64,000 nt of DNA, taken from positions 192,001 through 256,000 of the forward strand of contig CBDANS010000006.1 of NCBI GenBank assembly GCA_965197745.1. Reading direction: 5' to 3'. The notes beneath the pieces are model-generated. The model was not told where the DNA came from, did no database searches, and saw nothing but the letters and a program-made list of their open reading frames with translations. This DNA is from Opitutales bacterium (GTDB taxonomy: Bacteria > Verrucomicrobiota > Verrucomicrobiia > Opitutales > PNEW01). How positions within the stretch are numbered: position 1 is the first letter of the stretch; each line of letters opens with the position of its first letter. A program made the position numbers and the translations under genes. Shown piece by piece: positions 1,088 to 13,102 of this stretch.

Positions 1088-2194
1088 TCATCGTATTGAT
1101 TCATATCCTCCAAGAATACCTCCTTTGGAGAAAACTACCTGCCATAAATTAATACTGCGCGCGCGAAAAGCACCGGCACACTTCAAAAGATAGTAATTCC
1201 ACATTCGATAAAATCTCTCGTTATATCGATCCTTAAGTTGATCCCAATTCTTGGTAAAATTTTCATGCCATGCCATGAGTGTTTTATCGTAATGCGGTCC
1301 GAAATTATGCCAATCTTCCATTATGAACAAACCTTCGGCAACTTTAGAAATCTGCTGTATCGATGGAAGATGCCCATGGGGAAAAATATACTTAAGAATC
1401 CAGGGATTCCCCGGTGTCCAAAGAGAAGTATTTCTTCCTATCGTATGTAAAAGAAAGATCCCTTCATCTTTAAGGCTTCGATAAGTCAGTTCCATCAGTG
1501 TTTTATAGTTTTTATATCCGACATGTTCAAAAAATCCTACGTTCACCACTCGATCATAGATACCCTTTGCTTCTCGGTAATCTGCTTCTACAATAGTTAC
1601 CGGGAATCCCTCACAAGCTTTTCTTGCATATTTAACCTGCTCTTTCGATATATTATAACTTACCACATTACATTTGTATTCTTTAGCCATAAATCGTGCC
1701 AAAGTACCAAAACCCCCTCCTAATTCTAATATATCCATCTCCGGTTTAAGCTGCATCTTTTTACAAATAAGGTGAGCTTTGTTTATTTGTGCCTGATCAA
1801 GGCTGTCTGTATCTTTCCAATAGGCACAGGTGTATTGCATATTTTTAGAGAGCATAAGCTCAAAAAGATCATTACCCAGGGCGTAATGCTTTTTCGCCAC
1901 CTCGGTTGATCGCTTTTCTGACTGCATGTTTGCCAATTTATATTTCAAGTTCTTGAAGAACTGAACGAGAGAACTTAATTTTATGTCTAATTCAGATCTT
2001 TCAATTTGATAAAAAAATTGGTCCAAAGCGTCACAACTCCACCACCCATCCATGTAGGATTCTCCCAAAGCAAGAGAACCTCTTTTCAAAATTCTTTTAT
2101 ATAGTCCCTGATCATGGACTTGAATGTCCCATGGCCGATCTCCGTTGATTTTGATGTCAGCGAGTTCGAATATATCTTGAATAACTTGTTTCAT
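1088..2194 (-). CDS. cfa: Cyclopropane-fatty-acyl-phospholipid synthase
   Basis: Motifs GSLALGESYMDGWW, HYALGNDLF, MQYTCAYW, ILELGGGFG, RFYRMWNYYL..CAGAFRAR. Start placed at ATG 2194 (MKQVIQ), not the TTG at 2287. Confidence 0.9.
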   Translation of the reverse strand: MKQVIQDIFELADIKINGDRPWDIQVHDQGLYKRILKRGSLALGESYMDGWWSCDALDQFFYQIERSELDIKLSSLVQFFKNLKYKLANMQSEKRSTEVAKKHYALGNDLFELMLSKNMQYTCAYWKDTDSLDQAQINKAHLICKKMQLKPEMDILELGGGFGTLARFMAKEYKCNVVSYNISKEQVKYARKACEGFPVTIVEADYREAKGIYDRVVNVGFFEHVGYKNYKTLMELTYRSLKDEGIFLLHTIGRNTSLWTPGNPWILKYIFPHGHLPSIQQISKVAEGLFIMEDWHNFGPHYDKTLMAWHENFTKNWDQLKDRYNERFYRMWNYYLLKCAGAFRARSINLWQVVFSKGGILGGYESIR

Positions 2195-3390: not shown

Positions 3391-4708
3391 TGATCGGGTT
3401 ACGTAAACTGGTCCACCGAGAGAGTTAGTCTGGAGAGGTTAATGTTGAAGTTAAGTTGGTAGAGGAAGTCAAGGCTTGGGCGCAATGAGGGCGTAGCCCG
3501 AATGGAGCCCAAGCCTTCGGTATTAATGTCTTCAGCGAAGCACCGTGGGGTGATATTGCCGAGGCTGCGGTGGGGTCGGACATTATTGTAAAGCCAGCGC
3601 CAGTCCTCGATCACCACGCGGGCTTCGGTCAAAGTCCATAGCTGTTCACGGTTTAAACACTCCTCGCGAAAACGGGCATGCAACGATTCGATGTATCCGT
3701 TCTGCCAAGGGCTTCCTGGTTCGATATAGAGGGTTTTGATTTTCATCGCAGTTAGCCAGGCTCTCAATTCCTTTTCAATGAATGGCTTCGCATGTCGTCG
3801 CTTCGCTCCTCGGAACGGAACCGTTGTCACTGCGAATATATTGTGGCGGCCCATGACGGGCAAGCAGTTTTTGCATGATACCGCGCACCGTTTCCGCATT
3901 GATATGGCGATCAACATGGATCACTCGACACTCGCGGGTGTACTCATCGAGCACGGTCAACATTTTTAAACTGCCACCGCGGACCGTCTTATCGTGGATA
4001 AAATCCCAGGTCCAAACATGGCCGGGATGTTCGGCCTTGGTCGGCAGCCCGGTGGAAACACCCCTGCCCCGACGTCTTGGCTTGCGTTGGGGGATCGCCA
4101 AGCCCAGTTCGCGTCGTAGACCTTGCACGAGACGTTTACCCACCTCCCAGCCTTCGTCTTTCAACAGCTTCGTGATCTTCGGATAGCCCCACCTGGCATA
4201 TTGCCGTGATAACCGCCTTACTGCCGCCTTCAGTTTCATTAACCAGGCATCCGGATGCTTCGCCTTATACGCATAGGTGGAACGGTGCAGCCGAAAGTAC
4301 CGGCACCCCGCTCGCATCGAACACTGGCCCCGAGCCACAAGTCTCTCTGCCACTTGCCGCTTGTGCCCAGGGCTTACAGTTTTTTTTCGAGGGTCTCCTG
4401 CAGGATCTCTATCCCCAGCATCTTGTCCGCCAGCATCCGTTTTAACCGCGCGTTCTCCTTCAAAGAGTTCCTTCATCCGCTTGGCCTGGTCGACATCAAT
4501 CATCCCAAACTCACGCTTCCAGCGGTGGAAAGTCTGTTCGCTAATGTTGTTCTCGCGGCATGCTTCCAGGATCGTTTTCCCTTTGTCCGCCTGCCGCAGC
4601 ATCCGTATTTTCTCTTCAGTTGTGTATCTTTTGCCTTTCATTGTCTGAGTCCTTTCTAGGTTACCCAGACTAACTTTTCAAGTGTACCAGTTTTCGTGGT
4701 CACGACCA
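3391..4708 (-). mobile_element. IS3-family insertion sequence, copy 1 (orfA 1-nt indel; orfB split by a 32-nt insertion)
   Basis: TG..CA ends with imperfect IRs TGGTCGTGACCACGAAAACTGGTACAC / TGATCGGGTTACGTAAACTGGTCCAC. OrfA MKGKRYTTEE..; A-run at the orfA/orfB junction; OrfB motifs WTWDF, RSDNG, PGSPWQNGYIES, YNNVRPHRSLG. Confidence 0.93.
3784..3815 (-). other. 32-nt hairpin insertion in IS3 orfB (site 2)
   Basis: TTCCGAGGAGCGAAGCGACGACATGCGAAGCC lies between the G and A of the expected Glu codon in SDNGS-E-FI. Confidence 0.9.
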
Positions 4709-4816
4709 TGTAGGTAAAATCGGCAAAATCTTGGGCTCGATCACCTGGGAATCGAATTAGAAATTGTATCTTCATAATGTTCAGGACTTACATAATAGTT
4801 GTTGTCTCTTCTAACA

Positions 4817-5025
4817 ATTAATAACATGCAATGAGATCATGCGACTCTCGCTCCCCGAATGCTCCCCACTTTTCGCTATTGCACGCTATATGCTACTATT
4901 TAATTTTACGGGGAACAAGTGAAATATTGATTCATAAGTACTTAATAATTAATATATAGTGTTAATTAATAGGTAGTTATATATTGGAGAGTTGAACTCC
5001 GTAACAAAGGCTTTAAAAGCCCACA
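4817..5025 (-). repeat. Right copy of the ~200-bp imperfect inverted repeat (partner 2673-2868)
   Basis: Reverse complement aligns block by block with 2673-2868. Confidence 0.8.
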
Positions 5026-5044
5026 AGAGTTTATCACATTCCTT

Positions 5045-5172
5045 TCCGCTCTTGCCCGCGTTCGGGCTACGCCCTCACTTCGCCAAGATCTCTCATATAC
5101 ATCAATCCTAAAACCATTAATACCCGGGAACTCTCTCACTTAATAATTGGTACGAAAAACGGGGTCCGATCA
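5045..5172 (+). mobile_element. Orphan right end of another IS3-family element
   Basis: CGGGCTACGCCCTCACTTCGCC, the same motif as in the 3' tails of IS copies 1 and 3, followed by an IR ending TGGTACGAAAAACGGGGTCCGATCA. Confidence 0.7.
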
Positions 5173-6368
5173 TGGGGAATAAATTATTACACTAAAAGCT
5201 TATAATTCTTTGGATTTTTAAACCTCCACTTCACAGGCTTAAGTAAACTTACTATCGGCAATAAGGGCAATAAGCCTTTAGATGACTAACCTCCATAGTG
5301 TTTCATCAGTAGTGGAATCATATTAGATATTGACCGGATTCTATAATTAATTTCTCGGTTTATATATGCCAATTTACTATACAATAAGAAGATGGCGACT
5401 CCTTGTAATATACTCAATTATAGGCGGTCTTTTTTCATTGATAGATATTAACTTAATCTTTCTGACGCAAATTATGATGAATTGATTAAATTATATTACT
5501 GTCTCTTTTCCGTTGGAATTATAATTGTCAACCAAATATCTAGAGTTATACTTTATCATTTCAGATTTATTTTAACCTATCCCCCATTTATAATATCAGT
5601 AATCGTTGCGCTGCTTATTACCCTTGGTCGTATCCACGAAAACTGGGGCACTTGAAAAGTTAGTCTGGTCAACTTAGAAAGGACTAAGACGATGAAAGGG
5701 AAAAGATACGGGTATTGCGGAAAGCAAACAGAGGGAAATCGATCCAGGAAGTGTGCCGCGAGAGAAATATCAGCGAGCAGACGTTTCACCGATGGAAACG
5801 AGAGTTCGGGATGATTGATGTGAATCAGGCCAAACAGCTGAAAGAGCTGAAGTTGGAGAACGCACGGTTAAAGCGGATGCTGGCGGACAAGCCGCTGGGC
5901 ATGGAGATTCTACTGGAGACTCATGAAAAAAAACGGTAAGCCTTGAGCATAAGCGTCAATTGGCAGAGAGATTTGTAGTTTGGGGCCGGTGTTCGATGCG
6001 AGAGGTGTGCCGATATTTTCGCCTGCACCGTTCCCCCTATGCGTATAAGGTTGGGTAACCGGACGCGTAGTTGATGAAGTTGAAAGCGGCCATACGACGA
6101 CTATCACGGCAATACGCCAGCTGGGGCTATCCAAAGATCACGAAGCTGTTGAAAGACGATGGATGGCAGGTGGGTAACCGTCTTGTGCAACGCTTGCGTA
6201 ACGAACTGGACTTAGCAATCCCGCAGCGCAAACCGAAACGCCGGTGCAGGGGCGTCTCCACAGGATTATCTACGGTTGCCGATCATCCCAACCACGTATT
6301 TACCTGGGACTTCATCCACGATAAGACGATTCGTGGTGGCAGTCTTAAGATGCTGACGATACTCGATG

Positions 6369-6411
6369 TCCCGAGGAGCTGAAAGCAAGGACACTCGAGC
6401 GAAGCGAAGAC
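6369..6411 (+). other. 43-nt hairpin insertion in IS3 orfB (site 1)
   Basis: TCCCGAGGAGCTGAAAGCAAGGACACTCGAGCGAAGCGAAGAC lies between the G and A of the expected Glu codon in LTILD-E-xTRE. Confidence 0.88.
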
Positions 6412-6539
6412 ATGTACGCGTGAATACCTGCTGATTCATGTCGACCGTCATATTAATGCACGGTGCGTACGCACCACCATGCAGAAACTGATCGACCGAC
6501 ATGGACTTCCGCAATGCATTCGTAGTGACAGCGATTCGG

Positions 6540-6571
6540 TTCCGAGGAGCAAAGCGACGACATGCAAGGCC
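6540..6571 (+). other. 32-nt hairpin insertion in IS3 orfB (site 2), mutated copy
   Basis: TTCCGAGGAGCAAAGCGACGACATGCAAGGCC lies between the G and A of the expected Glu codon in RSDSDS-E-FI. Confidence 0.88.
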
Positions 6572-7019
6572 ATTTATTGAAAGCGAATTAAGAGCTTGGC
6601 TGGCGTTCGTGAACATCAAAACCATCTACATTGAACCAGGGAGTCCTTGGCAAAACGGCTACATCGAATCATTCCACGCCCGTTTTCGAGAAGAGTCTTT
6701 AAATCGTGAGCAGTTATGGACGTTGACTGAGGCTCGCGTGGTTATCGAAGATTGACTCTGGCTCTATTACACTGTCCGCACAAACCTTAGTCTCAATAAT
6801 ATTACTCCGAGGTGCTTTGCCGAGGATGCCTATAAACAAGGCTCGGGCTCCACTCGGGCTTACGCCTCGTTGCGGCCAAGCCCTGTACTTCCTCTACCAA
6901 CTTAAACCTCTCCAGACTAACTTTCTAGGTGGACCAGTTTGCGTATCCTGACCAATTATTCTTGATTAATAAAACGCACGCATAGGCTTGTTCAGGGAAT
7001 TACCCGGGCATTTACATAA

Positions 7020-7052
7020 TTGACAATTCGCAAGTAAGACGTCATCTTACTT
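7020..7052 (+). promoter_or_regulatory. Sigma70-type promoter overlapped by a palindromic operator for the TA operon
   Basis: TTGACA at 7020-7025. The inverted repeat AAGTAAGA-CGTCA-TCTTACTT (7032-7052) covers the -10 region just before the ATG at 7056. Confidence 0.65.
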
Positions 7053-7055
7053 ACA

Positions 7056-7289
7056 ATGAAAACTGTCATCTCATCGGAAGGTCAAATCGTCATTCCAGTC
7101 GCGTTTCGCGATCAAGACAAAATCGAACCTGGTCAAGCGTTTGATATTGAACGGGTAGATAGAGGCGAATATCGTTTGGCTGTAGCTGACCCCCCGAAGA
7201 ACCAGGGACTGTTGAGTATGCTCCTTGCATGTCCTGTTAAGGGTTGGTTTGTGCCGATCGAATCGGAGTCTACTGACTCACTCGGCTAA
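7056..7289 (+). CDS. AbrB/MazE/SpoVT-family antitoxin (VapB-like)
   Basis: MKTVISSEGQIVIPVAFRDQDKIEPGQ, a swapped-hairpin signature, directly upstream of a PIN gene. Confidence 0.85.
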   Translation: MKTVISSEGQIVIPVAFRDQDKIEPGQAFDIERVDRGEYRLAVADPPKNQGLLSMLLACPVKGWFVPIESESTDSLG

Positions 7290-7294
7290 CCCTC

Positions 7295-7702
7295 ATGGCG
7301 TGTCTCGTTGATGCCAACGTGCTGTGCGAAGCGACTAAACCGAGCCCTGATTTGAGGGTTATCGAGTGGTTGACGCGTAACGAACGCGACTTGGCAATTG
7401 ATCCAGTGATCCTGGGTGAAGTTCGCTTCGGGGTCCTTCTTCTTCCCTCTGGGCAACGGCGACAAGATCTCGAACGTTGGTTCGACGAGATTGCCCGTCG
7501 CATTCACTGTGTACCGTGGAATGCCGAGACAGGGTTGCGCTGGGCCGAACTCCTAGCGCATCTGCGTTCTCTCGGGAAACCGATGCCAATAAAGGACAGC
7601 CTTATTGCCGCAACGGCTCTCGCTAACGGATTCCAGTTAGCTACACGAAATCGTCGAGATTTCGAAGCCAGTGGCGTAGAACTCGTCGCTCCATTTGTTT
7701 GA
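7295..7702 (+). CDS. vapC: PIN-domain toxin (VapC family)
   Basis: LVDANVLCE, LGEVRFG, DSLIAATALANG..LATRNRRDF PIN motifs. Confidence 0.9.
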   Translation: MACLVDANVLCEATKPSPDLRVIEWLTRNERDLAIDPVILGEVRFGVLLLPSGQRRQDLERWFDEIARRIHCVPWNAETGLRWAELLAHLRSLGKPMPIKDSLIAATALANGFQLATRNRRDFEASGVELVAPFV

Positions 7703-7744
7703 AGGCGACGGTGAGTAAGTTTCGATTGGGACCCCAACCAAATC

Positions 7745-8120
7745 AGGATCAGCATAACGAGCTGAAATAGGGGATTATCATTGACCAGCTTTTGCCTATT
7801 TTAGGAAGCAGACTCCACACTAAAAATAAAGAGGAGTGGCACATAATGATAGCAGAGGATAAGATAAGCCCAACTCCACCTATAGAGAGGTTGCAGATCA
7901 AGTTCTTCAATGAAATGGGAAGTAGCCAGAACGCTTTGGCGAAGGTGATTAAGGTACTTTCTTCAAGGGGCGGCGGATGGTAACGGTAGATACGGAAATG
8001 CAGCTTGGACTTTATTTCGGGACAACCGCTGTGGTGCCGATGGACTTGCAGACTAATGACTATTTGCGCCCGGCGCTAATGATTAGGATGGTGCGATTGG
8101 ATACCAGCGCAGTGCCGTAA
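7745..8120 (+). pseudogene. HigBA toxin-antitoxin relic (tail of higB, frameshifted higA)
   Basis: AEIGDYH* ends at 7784 (HigB-type C-terminus). GAGGAG RBS and ATG 7846 give ..EMGSSQNALAKVIKV.. and, in a shifted frame, ITVDTEMQLGLYFGTTA..MDLQTNDYL (HigA HTH). Confidence 0.7.
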
Positions 8121-8307
8121 GGAAGGTGGAAATAAGATTTTACTTTAATGTGTTGCCTATAAGCAACACAGGTACGATAATGGTCGCGACGCTGACGAAG
8201 AACAGGTTGCCACCCACTGGCTCAGACGAACTGGTGCAACAGGAAATGCCGAGCACAACGATCAAGGAGGTACGGATATTAACAAGCTGGAGCGACAGAT
8301 TACCGTA

Positions 8308-8990
8308 TTAATGGGTGTTCTCCGAGAATGAGTAGTAGATATCTCCTAATCCGACATTGCCGCTATGCGTATGCACATTGATGTGCAGAGTTACCAGGTC
8401 CATACTACTATTTACAACGGTGCAGGCGAAGGTTTGCGGTTCGGTCGATGCGAACAGGTTGCGAAGACTCTCGATGCTGTCTAGTTCGGCGTCAGCAGAC
8501 TGAAAATAGGCGCGAATTTCATCGAACGATTTATCGCAGTAGTCACCGCGGGTATTGCAGCGGCGTCTTCGGATAAGATCAGACGCAGTTAGGTTTCGAC
8601 ATCCATAAACACCGTATTCTGGTTTCTCCAATCGACCGACAAGCTTGCCTTTATGCGGGAGGATCTTGAGTTTTCTGAGCGGTGATGCTGTCCAGTCGAA
8701 GGGTTTAATGGTTATTGGAACGCCACGCACGTAACCAGCCTTGTGCCGCTCAAGCGCCCACGCCAATTCTTTTTTTTAGCAATAATGGGAAGCAATAAAG
8801 TCTGGGCTGACCAATGGAAGGAAGAGATAGCAAGATTCGAGTTGTTATGGAATTTCTTGATTGAGGTCCCCACCTGCCAAGATTTCTCGGTCAAACCATT
8901 CGATGAATCTGCCCTAGCGGCGGAGCATCGCGAGATGCATGTGAAGGCGATCCAGAACCTTATCGGCTTTGTGCGACTATGAGATGGACT
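8308..8990 (-). pseudogene. TIR-domain protein pseudogene
   Basis: One frame reads IS*SHKAD..LDRLHMHLAMLRR*GRFIEWFDREILAGGDLNQEIP*QLESCYLFLPLVSPDFIASHYC*KKELAWALERH. In-frame stops at 8977, 8914, 8845 and 8776. Confidence 0.8.
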
Positions 8991-9406
8991 GTACTAGTTA
9001 CGATAAGATCTGGCAGCGAATCATTGTACAGGAAAGTGAACAGTTCATACAAATTAACGGCAGTGAATTAGCGTACTCGACATATGGGGCAGTGCTCATT
9101 CTAGGTCGCAAAAATTAAAATATATTCCAAAGATCCATTTCCGAGAATCAAGTGGATTGATTCCTCTAGAAAATACCAGGCTCGTACGGGATCTGCACGG
9201 CCCATCGTATATTTATGCAGTTTTAATGGATCACCATATCTGGCTGGAGAATTGAAGCATGTAAAGGCCGTATTACCAAAATATATCGCTGGTTGCTTAC
9301 ATCCTATGCGCTCAATATTCCTCGCGTGTTTGATGTGGCGAAAAGCTTGTCGTCGGTTAATATTAACTAAAATCGTTAATACACCAAACCGTCAAATTGA
9401 CCTTCG

Positions 9407-10042
9407 ATGATACTTGATATCACTAACCTAATGAAGGGCTTATCTTCAGAGCGCCCAATCTTTCATACAGAAGCAGACTTCCAACACGCACTCGCGTGGT
9501 ATATTCACAAGAAGATGCCAGATTGTCAGCTTCGCTTGGAGTTAAAGCCTTTCAAGAATGAAAGGAAGTACTTGGATATTTGGCTTCGGGGCATGGGAAT
9601 CGCGATTGAACTGAAGTACAAAACTAAAAAACTGGTGTACTGTGGTGATGAGCCCTTTGCTCTCCGCAATCAATATGCTCAAGACTTCGGCCGATACGAC
9701 TTCATCAAGGATATTTGCCGGCTGGAGCAAGTAGTAACTCATTTTGAGACAGCCAAGGTCGCGTTCGCGATATTGCTAACAAACGATTCGTCCTATTGGG
9801 AACTATCGAAACCAGATCTCGAGGATGCTGCCTTCCATCTCAACAATGGGACGAAGATTATGGGCAAAAGGGAATGGTCCATGAAGGCCGACCTAGAAAA
9901 GAAGAAAGGCAGAAAAATGCCGTTATGTCTAGAAGGGGCCTATGATTGTGTCTGGCGAAATTACTCATCCCCTAAATTCGTGGAAGGAAAGAACCGGCAG
10001 TTCCAATATCTAATGGTAAAAGTGCCATGTCCAGGAACGTAA
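9407..10042 (+). CDS. Hypothetical protein, possible PD-(D/E)XK nuclease fold
   Basis: Intact 211-aa ORF with EADFQHALAW..LDIWL..IAIELKYKT (E..D..ExK spacing). Confidence 0.6.
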   Translation: MILDITNLMKGLSSERPIFHTEADFQHALAWYIHKKMPDCQLRLELKPFKNERKYLDIWLRGMGIAIELKYKTKKLVYCGDEPFALRNQYAQDFGRYDFIKDICRLEQVVTHFETAKVAFAILLTNDSSYWELSKPDLEDAAFHLNNGTKIMGKREWSMKADLEKKKGRKMPLCLEGAYDCVWRNYSSPKFVEGKNRQFQYLMVKVPCPGT

Positions 10043-10329
10043 CGCTACAGACACCTATTTAGTCGCCGAGCCATCGGAAGTGGTGGAGTTGTGAAAGTCG
10101 CCCACAGATCCTATCGCAGTTTTAAGGGAATGTCGGTCTCGGCCAATGCAAGCTCTTGCAACTAAATTATCTCTTCTTTCTCGATGAGATAACGAGATTA
10201 TCTTTTCAATCTTTAAGACGTGAATTCGTTTAGGTGTCCTATGACGATAATATGAATCATTCCACCACCTTCTCAGCTAACACCTTTTTTCTACTGTAAC
10301 CCCACCCCTATAGATGATCAACCCGGCTG

Positions 10330-11147
10330 CACGCAGAGCGGGTCGTTACCCAATTCAGAGCTTCAACTTGCGGGGCACGACCTATCATGCCATACCAGCG
10401 GCTTACCAGTGGTAGAATCAAGGACGCAATCGTGTAATCTGGGCGGATTATTCAGGTCGGCGCAAGCTTGATTCAGTTGCTTCTGAGTTAGCCCTTTAAC
10501 TGGCGATTTGTTTCCATTGCCAGGATAACACAGCTTCGCACCGGATAGATTCGATTTAAAAGATTTGCCCCAGAAAGGTCTGCGTTCTTTAGAAACGCTT
10601 CGGATAAATTTGCCATCACAAGTTCTGAATCACACAGCTTCGCGTTAGCAAGGTTTGCACCCTCTAGAAACGCACCAGACAGATTCACCCCCACAAGGCC
10701 CGAACAGTAAAATTTTGCGCTCTGGCATTGTGCGTTAGACAAGTTGGAGCCCCAAAGATCTGTGTGTGAAAGACTCGCCTCCCTGAAGTTCGCACTGGAC
10801 AGATCTGCGTCCTTGAGCATCAACCCATGTAAATTAGCAGAGCTAAAATCCAAGTTAAACCTCTCTTTATTTTCGAGATCAATACCTTCTTTACTGCGAT
10901 CTCCGATAGCTTCCATAATTGCCTGAATATCTTTACCGAGGAGGAGGTCGGTAGCCTCTCTGGATATGGGTGGATTGCATACAAAGGCACAGAACTGACG
11001 CATGATCTGAATGTGATATTGCTCGAGATATTCCCTGGCTAGGTATTGCAACACGTAAATGCCGTTTAAACGCTCCAAGAGAACAGGGCTGAGCATTAAT
11101 TTTGTACCCTCCTGAGGTGTGTCTATCGAGGTCTCGCTACCGCCCAT
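10330..11147 (-). pseudogene. Pentapeptide-repeat protein fragment (frameshifted near the C-terminus)
   Basis: A(N/D)LSxA repeats preceded by RLNGIYVLQYLA..YHIQIMRQFCAFV. The tail GLTQKQLNQACAD..GKPLVW is in another frame. Confidence 0.7.
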
Positions 11148-11609
11148 TTATGCAATCTCGTCGGGCTTGGCTATATCAGTCGAGCTACCTCGTCTCAAGT
11201 ATACTGTATTCTTTTCGAGTTTACCAAATTTGGTAGTGAGGTAAACGGGGCGCTTCTGGACCGCTATCGAAATGACTCCAATTTTGTCGCCGTTAATTAA
11301 GTGGGTATGGTATGAGAACTTAATTGACCGCTGAATTTTAGAGTTAACAAATTGCTGGAGCTGTGAGTCGTCCAGATCTTTTGAGATACCAACAACCTTA
11401 CTCCGCCCGCCTTTTCTCTCCTCCACACCGATCAGAACGTACGCAGTTTTATCGCGCTAGGCATTAGTGAAAGCGAGGATATCCTTGAGTAACTCACTTC
11501 TGGCATTCTTATCCGCTCCTTCGAACGGATACCGAGAACTCTTAAAGTCAAGGGTAATCCCTTCATCCTCATGGAGTAGCTGCTCAATGAAATTAGGATC
11601 TAAGGGCAT
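11148..11609 (-). pseudogene. AlbA_2 (Schlafen-like) domain protein pseudogene
   Basis: ATG 11609: FIEQLLHEDEGITLDFKS..ELLKDILAFTNA*RDKTAYVLIGVEE..VYLRRGSST. Internal TAG at 11457-11459. Confidence 0.78.
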
Positions 11610-12063
11610 CAGTTAAATTCTATATGATTTATGAACTGGCTTATAGGTCTTTCCATCTTCCCTGTCAAGGTGATCGGGTTAGGCAAACTGGTCCACCGGG
11701 AGAGTTAGTCTGGAGAAGTTAATGTTGAAGTTAAGTTGGTAGAGGAAGTCAAGGGTTGGGCGCAATGAGGGCGTAGCCCGAATGGAGCCCGAGCCTTCGG
11801 TCTTGAGGTTTTCAGCGAAGCGCTGTGGGGTGATGTTGCCGAGACTGCGGTGGGGGCGGACATTATTGTAAAGCCAGCGCCAATCCTCGATCACTACACG
11901 TGCTTCGGTTAAAGTCCATAGCTGTTCACGGTTTAAGTACTCCTCACGGAAACGGGCATGGAACGACTCGATGAAACCGTTTTGCCAGGGACTGCCCGGA
12001 TCGATATATATCGCCTTGATCTTTTTGTCGGACAACGACTGCTGCACTTGATGAGCAATGAAT

Positions 12064-12095
12064 GGCTTCGCATGTCGTCGCTTCGCTCCTCGGAA
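12064..12095 (-). other. 32-nt hairpin insertion in IS3 orfB (site 2)
   Basis: Identical to 3784-3815 although the flanking codons differ. Confidence 0.9.
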
Positions 12096-12223
12096 CACTG
12101 CCGTTGTCACTACGGATATAGCTGGGAGCTCCCTCCTTTTCAATGGCCTCGCTAAGCACAGAGAGGACATCCGATGAGGGGAGTTCACGAGCGACCCGGA
12201 TATCCAGACATTCACGCGTATAT

Positions 12224-12266
12224 GTCTTCGCTTCGCTTGAGTGTCGTCGCTTTCAGCTCCTCGGTA
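12224..12266 (-). other. 43-nt hairpin insertion in IS3 orfB (site 1)
   Basis: TACCGAGGAGCTGAAAGCGACGACACTCAAGCGAAGCGAAGAC lies between the G and A of the expected Glu codon in TLID-E-YTREC. Confidence 0.9.
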
Positions 12267-13102
12267 CATCGATCAGAGTCATCATCTTTAATGGACCGCC
12301 ATGGTCTGTGCGATCATGGACAAAGTCCCAGGACCAAAGGTGATTGCGACCGGTTGCTTTAGTAGGCGACCCCGTAGAGACCCCTTGACGGTGTCTACGC
12401 TTTTTAGGTGGCTTTACCTGCAACCCTTCTGAACGTCGTACCGCCTGAACAAACTTCCTGTTTGTTGTCCAGCCTTCCTTTACGAGCAAGGCACGGATGC
12501 GCCGGTAACCGTAGCAGGGATGTTCCCAGGACAGGGTTATAATCCGCTCGGCCAACCGCTGAGCTTTCTTACTGGCCTGCTTGGGCTGGTAGCTGAAAGT
12601 TGACCAACTGAGGCTGAGGTAGGAACAAGCCCTTCGCAACGAGCACAGCCCTCTCTCAGCCGCATCTTTTACTACTCGCTTCTTCTGCTTGGGGCTCACC
12701 ACTTTTTTGACAGCGTTTCCTCCATTACCTGATTCTTAAGCATTTGATCAGCGAGCATCTTCTTCAACTCGGTGTTTTCTTTTTCCAGCTCTTTAAATCG
12801 CTTCGCATCGGCTAGTTCCAAATTGCCATACTTTTTACCCCAGCGATAGAAGGTCTGTTCACTCACGTTGTTGCCTCGGCAGATTTCCTCTACCGTTTTT
12901 CCGGTATCGGCTTGCCGCAGTATTGCGATGATCTGTTCTGTTGTGTATCTTTTTCTTTTCATGAGGTTATCTGTTTATCCCGATAACCTCTCTCTGTTAA
13001 TGATACCATTTTTGGGGGTCACTCCACCGGTATAAAAAATAAGGTGATAAAAATTATTAATGAGGGAAACAAAGATTGGCCTGCGAACATCGAATCTCTG
13101 CA

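Follow-up and report, generated by a model that had tools for sequence, protein, structure and literature searches.

What are the short inserts that interrupt the transposase genes in this stretch of Opitutales DNA, and how did they come to lie there? Within the window (the whole 64,000-nt stretch analysed, contig CBDANS010000006.1, positions 192,001 to 256,000), three copies of IS3-family insertion sequences (IS) carry five inserts of 32 or 43 nt at two equivalent positions of the transposase frame orfB, here called site 1 and site 2. A sequence-only reading had proposed either a tiny element that targets transposase genes or a removable or skippable cassette that controls their expression. 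We hold, with a little more confidence than doubt, that the inserts are short-form copies of a miniature non-coding insertion element native to this order of Verrucomicrobiota, a parasite of parasites that disables transposases. It is a member of an apparently undescribed family of miniature elements directed to the word G^AAT (the caret marks the insertion point), and this family is wider than the earlier reading reported. The filled IS copies would be non-autonomous, having lost transposase function.

All five inserts were found exactly where they had been placed. Copy 1 (3391..4708, minus strand, c1a type) has the ends TGGTCGTGACC...CCCGATCA, as judged from the alignment of copies, and belongs to a cluster of 15 members with a median identity of 99.75%. 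It carries a 32-nt short-form insert with a +1 frame shift at site 2 (3784..3815, minus strand), in the protein context S-D-N-G-S-[E]-F-I, and is empty at site 1, where the sequence reads GAG followed by T (3943..3945, minus strand; CTC as written forward), in agreement with the earlier description. Copy 2 (5625..6954, plus strand, c2) is a single decayed copy whose translation has stops in every segment; it lacks a close paralogue, with one match at 100% and the others at 71–75%. Its 43-nt insert at site 1 (6369..6411, plus strand) is decayed as well, with GCAAGGACA where GCGACGACA is expected, and its 32-nt insert at site 2 (6540..6571, plus strand) departs from the common form at 3 of 34 positions. 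Copy 3 (11671..13026, minus strand, c3 type with a c1-like 3′ part) is filled at both sites, by a 32-nt short-form insert at site 2 (12064..12095, minus strand), which a contig from RNA library X20 (record 13) covers without a gap, and by a 43-nt short-form insert at site 1 (12224..12266, minus strand; L-I-D-[E]-Y-T-R-E), which keeps the frame, has a TGA in it and is likewise covered gap-free by contigs from RNA libraries X20 and X21 (records 14 and 18). In the sense orientation of the IS, the inserts at 3784–3815(−) and 12064–12095(−) are both G|TTCCGAGGAGCGAAGCGACGACATGCGAAGCC|AT, the insert at 6540–6571(+) is G|TTCCGAGGAGCAAAGCGACGACATGCAAGGCC|AT, and the insert at 12224–12266(−) is G|TACCGAGGAGCTGAAAGCGACGACACTCAAGCGAAGCGAAGAC|AT.

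The hosts were identified as IS3 elements by Pfam matches to HTH_21, rve and rve_3, by their two overlapping frames (orfA/orfB) and by their TGG...CCA ends, as in the IS3 family; the c3 type has inverted repeats of its own. The site 2 insert adds a net 31 nt and shifts the frame, and the site 1 insert adds a net 42 nt, stays in frame and reads GTA CCG AGG AGC TGA. The possibility of an assembly artefact was discarded, since the inserts are present in independent assemblies, isolates among them, and in contigs of four public runs.

The inserts are far more conserved than the genes that surround them. Between the c1a and c3a types, synonymous sites are saturated and the nonsynonymous divergence (dN) is 0.55, and the insert differs at 0 of 34 positions; the identity of the 32-mers of copies 1 and 3 between dissimilar flanks, noticed earlier, is thus confirmed. 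For the two doubly filled types c3a and c3b, the synonymous divergence (dS) was 0.59 upstream of site 1 (segA) and 0.90 in the 126 nt between the inserts, where the two types are 20% diverged and dN/dS is 0.12, and the inserts themselves showed 0 differences in 79 nt. Identical inserts were also observed in IS lineages whose flanks are 7–20% apart, and five lineages, 86–93% alike and drawn from two genomes, share an identical 43-mer.

Every copy of the element has an invariant end module, T(T/A)CCGAGGAGC, a loop of 3–6 nt and GCGACGACA, and its junction is always G|T(T/A)CCGAGGAGC. The loops include GAA, GCA, GTA, GGA, AAA, TTT, ATC, TAC, TGAAA, TACT and others, with GNA being the commonest. 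Within the module, GAGGAGC and GCGACGA could pair as C:G, G:C, A.G, G.A, G:C, A.G, G.A, which amounts to two tandem G.A motifs. In the short form (for example 32, 36 or 43 nt), the module is followed by 1–5 bases and then by GCGAAGC(GCC), and terminal inverted repeats are lacking. In the long form (50–110 nt), it is followed by (A/T)GACCGG, a variable hairpin and CCGGA(A/C)C; the terminal CGGAAC could pair with the initial GTTCCG in 3 of 12 aligned copies, and the others end in CGGACC. The family as a whole spans 31–110 nt. One or two compensatory changes were seen by eye in the P2 helix of the long form, among only 12 distinct sequences. Mini-hairpins of d(GCGAAGC) and with GNA triloops are exceptionally stable in DNA; nearest-neighbour folding of the element as DNA and RNA gave no excess stability (z from −0.68 to +1.53) and at most 2–5 paired bases. 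No Rfam family matched the motif in the window, at loci L001/L002 or at 20 further loci. A bulge-helix-bulge intron structure and integron attC core sites were compared with the junctions by eye and did not fit.

The junction itself follows a simple rule. On its 5′ side the element is preceded by G almost without exception, AAT, CAT or AT follows on its 3′ side, and the usual landing site is G^AAT. Two pairs of filled and empty alleles were available. At site 1 the empty allele reads GAT GAA TAT and the filled allele GAT G[43]A TAT, and a DNA contig from run X3 carries the same empty joint, with one base in place of the 43 nt. In the T-loop of homologous units made of a GIY-YIG reading frame and a pseudo-tRNA-Asn (tRNA, transfer RNA), GGTTCGAATCC is intact in genome G423 and reads GGTTCG[38]ATCC in genome G402. 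Neither pair shows a target duplication, and one A is lost or replaced; at site 1 this fits the earlier claim of an insert that replaces a base without duplicating its target. In some T-loop copies neither A is lost. The IS inserts have the same junction type (CC|AT) as the T-loop copies of their lineage, and the IS insert of Cerasicoccus has the GCGCC|CAT junction of its own relatives, unlike that of this genome.

The same element occurs well beyond the IS3 copies of the window. Carriers make up 19 of 401 sampled genomes of the phylum, and 18 of the 19 belong to this order. One family has 14 carriers among 26 genomes, two others have 1 among 3 and 2 among 5, and a fourth has 0 among 35; one carrier lies outside the order. 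The composite motif CCGAGGAGC-N3-6-GCGACGACA has 103 copies in this genome (G000; 4.45 Mb, assembly 92% complete) and 1–7 in each of the other carriers; reversed as a control, it gave 0 matches in the 401 genomes. The nonamer CCGAGGAGC by itself is unremarkable in the window, with 12 occurrences at one mismatch or fewer against 10.98 expected. An exact-pattern scan with one genome per species returned at least 31 loci, among them records of Cerasicoccus and Pelagicoccus isolates, and a few further matches came from Lentisphaerae and Woeseiaceae. Loci L018, L022, L023 and L034, in GC-rich genomes, look like chance matches and were rejected as members of the family. Full-text literature searches within open journals returned no description of this element.

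The hosts of these copies are non-homologous, and the junction is shared. Among protein-coding hosts we found an IS630-type DDE_3 gene interrupted at LNPD-[E]-Y (L049/L060), an rve_3 gene (L057), an rve-like gene named by eye, with the motif in antisense (L058), a group II intron reverse transcriptase (RT) gene in which the two copies of the motif interrupt the RVT_1 and maturase matches (L039, also antisense), and two further IS3-type sites identified by eye (L012, L024). The open reading frames (ORFs) searched from L058 and the ORF of L067 matched no Pfam family, and an empty IS630 copy sought in the assembly of G267 was absent from it. A 156-codon ORF on two viral contigs (L067/L074) contains a 51-nt long form that is in frame and open; the other 16 of the 18 pattern matches on viral contigs are chance-looking, in GC-rich coding DNA, and only this locus is genuine. 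Several copies are intergenic, and in two cases (L050, L061) they occupy the loop of a local hairpin. Loci L049/L060 of G267 also hold a second, unrelated 43-nt insert (TCGAGACCGG...GGAGCCGGAT) about 45–90 nt upstream of the motif, between direct CCGGAT repeats and inside Y-S-P-D|L-N-P, which makes it a different hairpin-like micro-insert in the same catalytic motif.

The remaining hosts are tRNA-derived. In T-loop DNA (L001–L003, L007, L011, L013, L028–L030, L032, L104, L105) the junction is GGTTCG|T(A/T)CC...GCGCC|(A/C)ATCC, in partial tRNA copies beside intact tRNA-Ser, -Arg, -Asn and -Gln genes; these copies are often in tandem and often have an inverted T-arm copy at the other side. In D-loop DNA the junction is GGTCG|..|(C)ATGG, in 5′ fragments of tRNA-Ser genes (L008, L009, L019). 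The long form, in either orientation, has an intact tRNA gene on one side and, on the other, a direct duplicate of the 3′ part of that gene, starting inside the T-loop, and overall the motif is found in sense or antisense to tRNAs and genes. In this genome only 3 motif copies lie outside IS, all in T-loop DNA of tRNA-3′-end fragments just downstream of the tRNA-Asn and tRNA-Gln genes.

These distributions divide the earlier claim of a tiny element targeting transposases. The element is discrete, with a module of its own and non-homologous sites, and genes of mobile elements are over-represented among its hosts. Its target, however, is the DNA word G^AAT and not the glutamate codon or the transposase as such, as the antisense, T-loop, D-loop and intergenic copies indicate. 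A history of one event per site, with no other occurrences, is contradicted by the same data.

Several details of the tRNA-linked loci deserve record. At L001 (718–811), L011, L032 and L019 the 5′ flank often gives GGAT-GA-GAAC(C)...(G)GTTC-G^A-ATCC, a long hairpin in which the T-arm is joined by its complement and a tandem G.A mismatch falls exactly on the insertion point; in Rfam these T-loop flanks gave only a weak RtT-like match (23.7 bits against a threshold of 45). At L013, in a metagenome-assembled genome (MAG) of Woeseiaceae, the T-loop-interrupted 3′ duplicate of tRNA-Arg ends in CCA, and the adjacent intact gene is followed by CGA; the CCA end would fit a copy of a mature tRNA or a 3′ end borne by the element. 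At L009 (398–522), in a Puniceicoccaceae MAG, a full-length tRNA-Ser(CGA)-like gene has a 35-nt short form in its D-loop and is preceded by two tandem copies of the promoter and 5′ fragment with the same insert.

Within this genome, about 100 of the 103 motif copies lie on IS copies. The inventory comprised 79 near-full-length copies of these IS types. With site 1 given before site 2, 32 of the 79 are GAG (empty)/filled, 30 are filled at both sites, 6 are filled at site 2 with site 1 unparsed, 4 are empty at both (GAG/GAG), 2 are GAA/filled and 2 are unparsed/GAG, with one each of GAG/TAG, GAA/GAA and unparsed. GAG stands at site 1 in 32 of 32 c1-type copies. The genes are otherwise mostly intact: of 32 c1-type copies, 29 have the C-terminal segment open over its whole length of 127 codons, and of 30 doubly filled copies, 21 have it open for 118 codons. 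The copies form four recent bursts, with 15, 14, 14 and 10 members and median pairwise identities of 99.75–99.9%. A relaxed search of this genome revealed a third occupied site in about 14 copies, a 36-nt variant at R-D-[E]-C-L-N (GAT G^A^A TGT). Intact empty copies are few and filled ones many, at 4 versus 28 for the c1 type here, and the same imbalance recurs twice within near-identical families (4 versus 9 for c1b in this genome, about 6 versus 44 for site 1 in G402). With regard to the hosts themselves, many c1-type copies, copy 1 included, have a 1-nt length variant (TTT vs GA) in orfA at 4440–4470(−), which is the 1-nt frame change in orfA of copy 1; through it the N-terminal part of orfA comes to share the frame of orfB at a point well upstream of the A8 slippery run, which makes a fused orfAB allele without the OrfA C-terminus. 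Both alleles occur in filled and in free copies.

Counted by pattern, empty and filled copies at site 2 number 9/69 in this genome and, in the two same-genus relatives, 5/12 (G401) and 61/12 (G402), and at site 1 (c3 type) 8/29, 7/3 and 6/44, respectively. The identity of the empty allele differs between the sites. At site 1 the empties are GAA in 20 of 21 pattern matches from the three genomes, and together with the contig joint this fits the earlier proposal that the empty site is GAA followed by T. For site 2 the proposal fails, with GAG in 7 of 9 empties here and in 5 of 5 and 60 of 61 in the two relatives; the exceptions are one dead AGT GAA TTC copy and a CCA GAA TTT family that is empty in two genomes. 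Genome-wide, GAA is preferred over GAG as a glutamate codon 2:1 (26,656 versus 13,215). The idea that GAG alleles are resistant holds for site 2 and fails for site 1, whose empties are GAA.

The fill states assort freely. Among lineages 80–94% identical, sites 1, 2 and 3 were found as filled/filled/empty, filled/empty (GAG)/empty, empty (GAA)/filled/empty, empty/empty/filled and all filled. Four insert-free copies equal the filled c1b copies over about 1300 nt except at the site itself, where G-AG-TTT stands against G-[31 nt]-CA-TTC, and the patch that differs is at most about 55 nt long, as bounded by the markers of the next lineage. The c1b cluster holds 13 copies, of which 9 are filled and 4 free; any two of its informative positions, with the fill state counted as one, occur in all four combinations, and mosaic IS copies are present. 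The patch-like difference and the four combinations imply that the insert was re-acquired repeatedly or copied in very short tracts centred on it; simple descent does not explain the fill pattern. Ordinary conversion as the sole cause is unlikely, because the 126 nt between the inserts would have been homogenised too.

These observations bear on the view that the element has no mobility of its own, and that its motif was captured once or a few times, for instance as a tRNA-linked attachment region, and then spread by IS transposition, horizontal transfer and ordinary conversion. Conversion between copies is indeed rampant in the c1b cluster, nearly all motif copies of this genome ride on IS, and the search for a dedicated enzyme gave none. 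Against this view, the same junction rule holds at non-homologous sites in 19 genomes, including IS630, RT and phage genes unrelated to IS3; the inserts stayed identical while the DNA between them diverged by 20%; and the insert in the Cerasicoccus IS is of the T-loop type of its own lineage and not of the type in this genome. We consider such purely passive spread improbable.

The same alleles also speak to a reversible DNA switch, in which precise excision in part of the population would restore the glutamate codon and make the transposase phase-variable. Site 1 empties are exactly GAA, with one base for 43, and some filled and empty copies of one IS are otherwise identical. The identical filled/empty pair, however, has the extra flank changes AG-TTT versus CA-TTC and is no clean excision product, excision cannot yield the GAG of the site 2 empties, and the joints in the reads, seen as contigs only, fit separate empty copies. 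A switch of this kind is very unlikely.

Is the insert instead removed from the RNA or bypassed in translation? The read evidence consists of Logan contigs only, in which rare forms are hidden, and metatranscriptome libraries may contain DNA. In two metatranscriptome libraries, contigs run uninterrupted through both inserts (X20 records 13 and 14; X21 record 18), and the sole insert-free contig from an RNA library is a GAG-TTT-ATC empty copy, not a splice product. This retention argues against a tiny RNA intron that would be cut from messenger or tRNA precursors by a protein endonuclease and a ligase, an idea to which the sizes of the inserts, resembling those of unconventional introns, and the one full-length tRNA-Ser gene with an insert in its D-loop (L009) might otherwise lend appeal. 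The motif also occurs in both orientations relative to transcription and matches no Rfam family, and removing the conserved unit would give alanine (GCA) or a frame error, not glutamate. Moreover, ARAGORN called no tRNA for the interrupted L009 gene and did call the intact paralogous genes in L008 and L019. We give an RNA intron hardly any credence.

Programmed recoding is a different matter, since here the insert would stay in the RNA. Ribosomes would hop, shift by +1 or read through, the cassette would act as an attenuator, and some full-length transposase would still be made. At site 2 the frame reads GTN CCG | 28 nt | CCA TTC, with CCG as the take-off and CCA as the landing codon, the latter composed of the CC of the insert and the third base of GAA. 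The AGG that follows the take-off codon is the rarest arginine codon here (3007 of about 32,400 arginine codons), the CCG/CCA arrangement recurs in the independent Cerasicoccus insert (L024), and the 32-mer is open in the +1 frame. At site 1 an AGC stands directly before the in-frame TGA in the loop of the P1 hairpin, with a matching in-frame AGC 21 nt on, a layout that recalls gene 60 of phage T4. The filled families are also the abundant, recently amplified ones, with dN/dS of about 0.12, and the inserts decay only in the dead copy c2. On the other hand, the module is equally conserved in non-coding DNA and in antisense within genes, so no translational role is needed for its conservation. 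Site 3 lacks a matching codon pair, and hopping is not possible there; most site 1 copies have ACA in place of the CCA landing codon, which is present in 4; each protein made from a c3 copy would require two or three rare events; and ARAGORN found no tRNA-Sec among the 44 tRNA genes of this genome. (These 44 genes also lack tRNA-His, probably because of the 92% completeness of the assembly.) On balance we regard recoding as unlikely. The removable or skippable expression cassette of the sequence-only reading thus found no support, given that the RNA-library contigs retain the inserts, that Rfam gave no match and that codon pairs exist at some sites only.

Returning to the miniature insertion element, we propose the following course of events. 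The element enters DNA after a G, typically at G^AAT, often costing or changing the first A, and it is most at home in genes that belong to other mobile elements and in tRNA-gene fragments, in their T- and D-loop DNA. The three glutamate codons (GAA followed by T) hit in this genome lie in orfB genes of the IS3 type, and the insert breaks the transposase frame at sites 2 and 3 and adds a TGA at site 1. Filled copies would then have increased in number through IS transposition, with the few insert-free copies as helpers in trans, and the insert may also have moved between resident copies by short-patch copying centred on it. As to the entry step, a trans-acting nuclease could cut G^AAT, with repair copying any filled template through the microhomology of G and AT. 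This route, which we think quite possible though somewhat short of probable, would account for the loss or change of the A, for a junction type that is specific to the lineage, for flanking bases converted along with the insert, for GAG being immune at site 2, for the lack of terminal repeats and duplications, and for an insert that spreads efficiently among paralogues and rarely jumps to new sites. Single-strand transposition of the HUH type is a less probable route; it would fit an element that is fixed at one end and variable at the other, and also the GNA mini-hairpins.

A number of observations weigh against this account. No enzyme linked to the element was found. Around the single Y1_Tnp gene of this genome neither the motif nor any notable inverted repeat is present, and no credible motif was found at 12 loci taken from 107 Y1 matches in five other carriers. 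In a tblastn search over the collected loci, the only GIY-YIG ORF next to the motif is that of L105; in L107 such an ORF lies beside an empty site. The c3 type, which has its own inverted repeats, has no intact insert-free copy in this 92%-complete assembly, which leaves 24 recent c3 copies without a visible helper. IS3 transposases are said to act preferentially in cis, which makes the mass amplification of dead copies awkward. The filled lineages have kept a dN/dS of about 0.12, indicating strong purifying selection, and this value fits continued function if the inserts are old. G^AAT, with tens of thousands of sites expected, is too common to explain the narrow host range alone; the T-loop-like GAAT in ATC GAA TCG of the same gene is never filled, and the CCA GAA TTT family stays empty. 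Finally, the model does not account for the inverted T-arm duplications around many tRNA-linked copies.

Two side observations concern genes of the enzyme classes searched for. Four carriers (G054, G057, G231 and G033) have 15–49 Y1_Tnp (IS200-like) matches each, many in ORFs of about 330–360 codons, and this genome and G165 have one each, which points to a large lineage-specific expansion of HUH-type genes in other carriers. The L105 (G402, about 1100–1660, minus strand) and L107 (G423, 1348–1935) loci consist of one or two tandem units of about 300–400 nt beside tRNA-Asn. Each unit combines a GIY-YIG ORF of 82–85 amino acids (Pfam PF01541, E 3e-16 and 8e-18) with a pseudo-tRNA-Asn in which a short hairpin replaces the 5′ anticodon-stem strand, and has the appearance of a minimal mobile cassette directed at the tRNA-Asn gene, with no integrase.

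The most far-reaching form of the proposal is one that we put forward only tentatively and consider rather unlikely as a whole. It would make the short form a self-propagating element of 31–43 nt, among the smallest known, which invades G^AAT in catalytic-core codons of transposase and RT genes and in T- and D-loop DNA by way of a trans-acting nuclease, of the host or of a mobile element, and templated repair, a hyperparasite that silences mobile elements, with the GAG alleles of IS as escape mutants in an arms race. In a bolder variant, the inserts would be mobile bypass cassettes like that of gene 60, and the filled genes would still work. If the insertion-element account is true, it describes a new kind of miniature insertion element with an unusually sharp target and a striking tendency to settle within tRNA-gene fragments and the genes of other mobile elements, a natural case of mobile DNA disabled by smaller mobile DNA and a marker for IS activity and turnover in Opitutales, and it poses the biochemical puzzle of an enzyme that cuts or joins at G^AAT beside a tandem-G.A hairpin. 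It also accounts for the roughly 70 IS3 transposase genes here, and more in relatives, that resemble pseudogenes broken at the same codons. If recoding were true instead, the inserts would represent the second system of translational bypassing in bacteria, one that is moreover mobile.

How does this element compare with known systems? Homing introns and endonuclease genes, such as the GIY-YIG Seg genes of T4, are likewise copied into empty paralogous sites with few flanking bases; synonymous GAG alleles stay empty here, and a GIY-YIG ORF lies beside one tRNA-linked copy. Unlike them, the element encodes nothing, is unspliced and also enters non-homologous sites. Bypass elements (T4 gene 60 and the mitochondrial ‘byps’) are similarly short inserts (27–55 nt) in coding sequence with matching codons, and codon pairs of this type exist here at site 2 and L024 (CCG..CCA) and at site 1 (AGC-TGA..AGC); site 3 and most landing codons do not fit, however, and the same sequence occurs in non-coding DNA and in antisense. 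The palindromic elements of Rickettsia, 100–150 bp long and as a rule in frame, resemble this element as small repeats inside ORFs and RNA genes, and the viral-contig copy is in frame and open as they are, whereas most coding copies here break the frame or carry a stop. The IS200/IS605 family transposes by ‘peel and paste’, without target duplication, with orientation-specific insertion directed by a short target word and with subterminal hairpins. The element shares the lack of duplication, the oriented insertion at a short word and the subterminal hairpins, but its target word AAT lies 3′ of the insertion point with only the G conserved on the 5′ side, one of its ends is variable and no TnpA is linked to it.

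A close resemblance is to repetitive extragenic palindromic (REP) sequences and REPINs, mobilised by RAYT (Y1 HUH) transposases, which, in the sections of PMC3733652 that deal with them, are very small (20–40 nt), non-coding, hairpin-forming, single-strand-oriented, occasionally intragenic and devoid of a gene of their own, as is this element. The traits given in the same sections (PMC3733652) are a 5–13 bp palindromic stem, a GTAG or CGTC end tag and a flanking RAYT gene. The element has no such stem, with 2–5 paired bases at most on folding, and it ends in T(T/A)CC... and ...GCC without a terminal GTAG or CGTC, CGTC being only internal and on the opposite strand. It is also not extragenic, is not high-copy by itself and has a defined insertion point, G^AAT, and no RAYT (Y1) gene is flanked by the motif at the single gene here or at the 12 loci in five carriers. 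In its behaviour the element resembles what was once proposed for the pneumococcal element RUP, a preference for insertion into IS that would limit functional transposases, an association with IS that, in the part of PMC3049150 concerned with it, was later unconfirmed. As described there, RUP is 107 bp long with terminal inverted repeats and target duplications, whereas the short form here is 31–43 nt long, has neither and sits at fixed codons. MITEs, the miniature transposable elements with inverted repeats, differ in the same way from the short form, which has no inverted repeats and makes no target duplication. By analogy, the element appears to work most like a non-autonomous element of the REP or MITE type, yet it departs from the features that define REPs and, as regards target duplication and the lack of inverted repeats in the short form, from those of MITEs.

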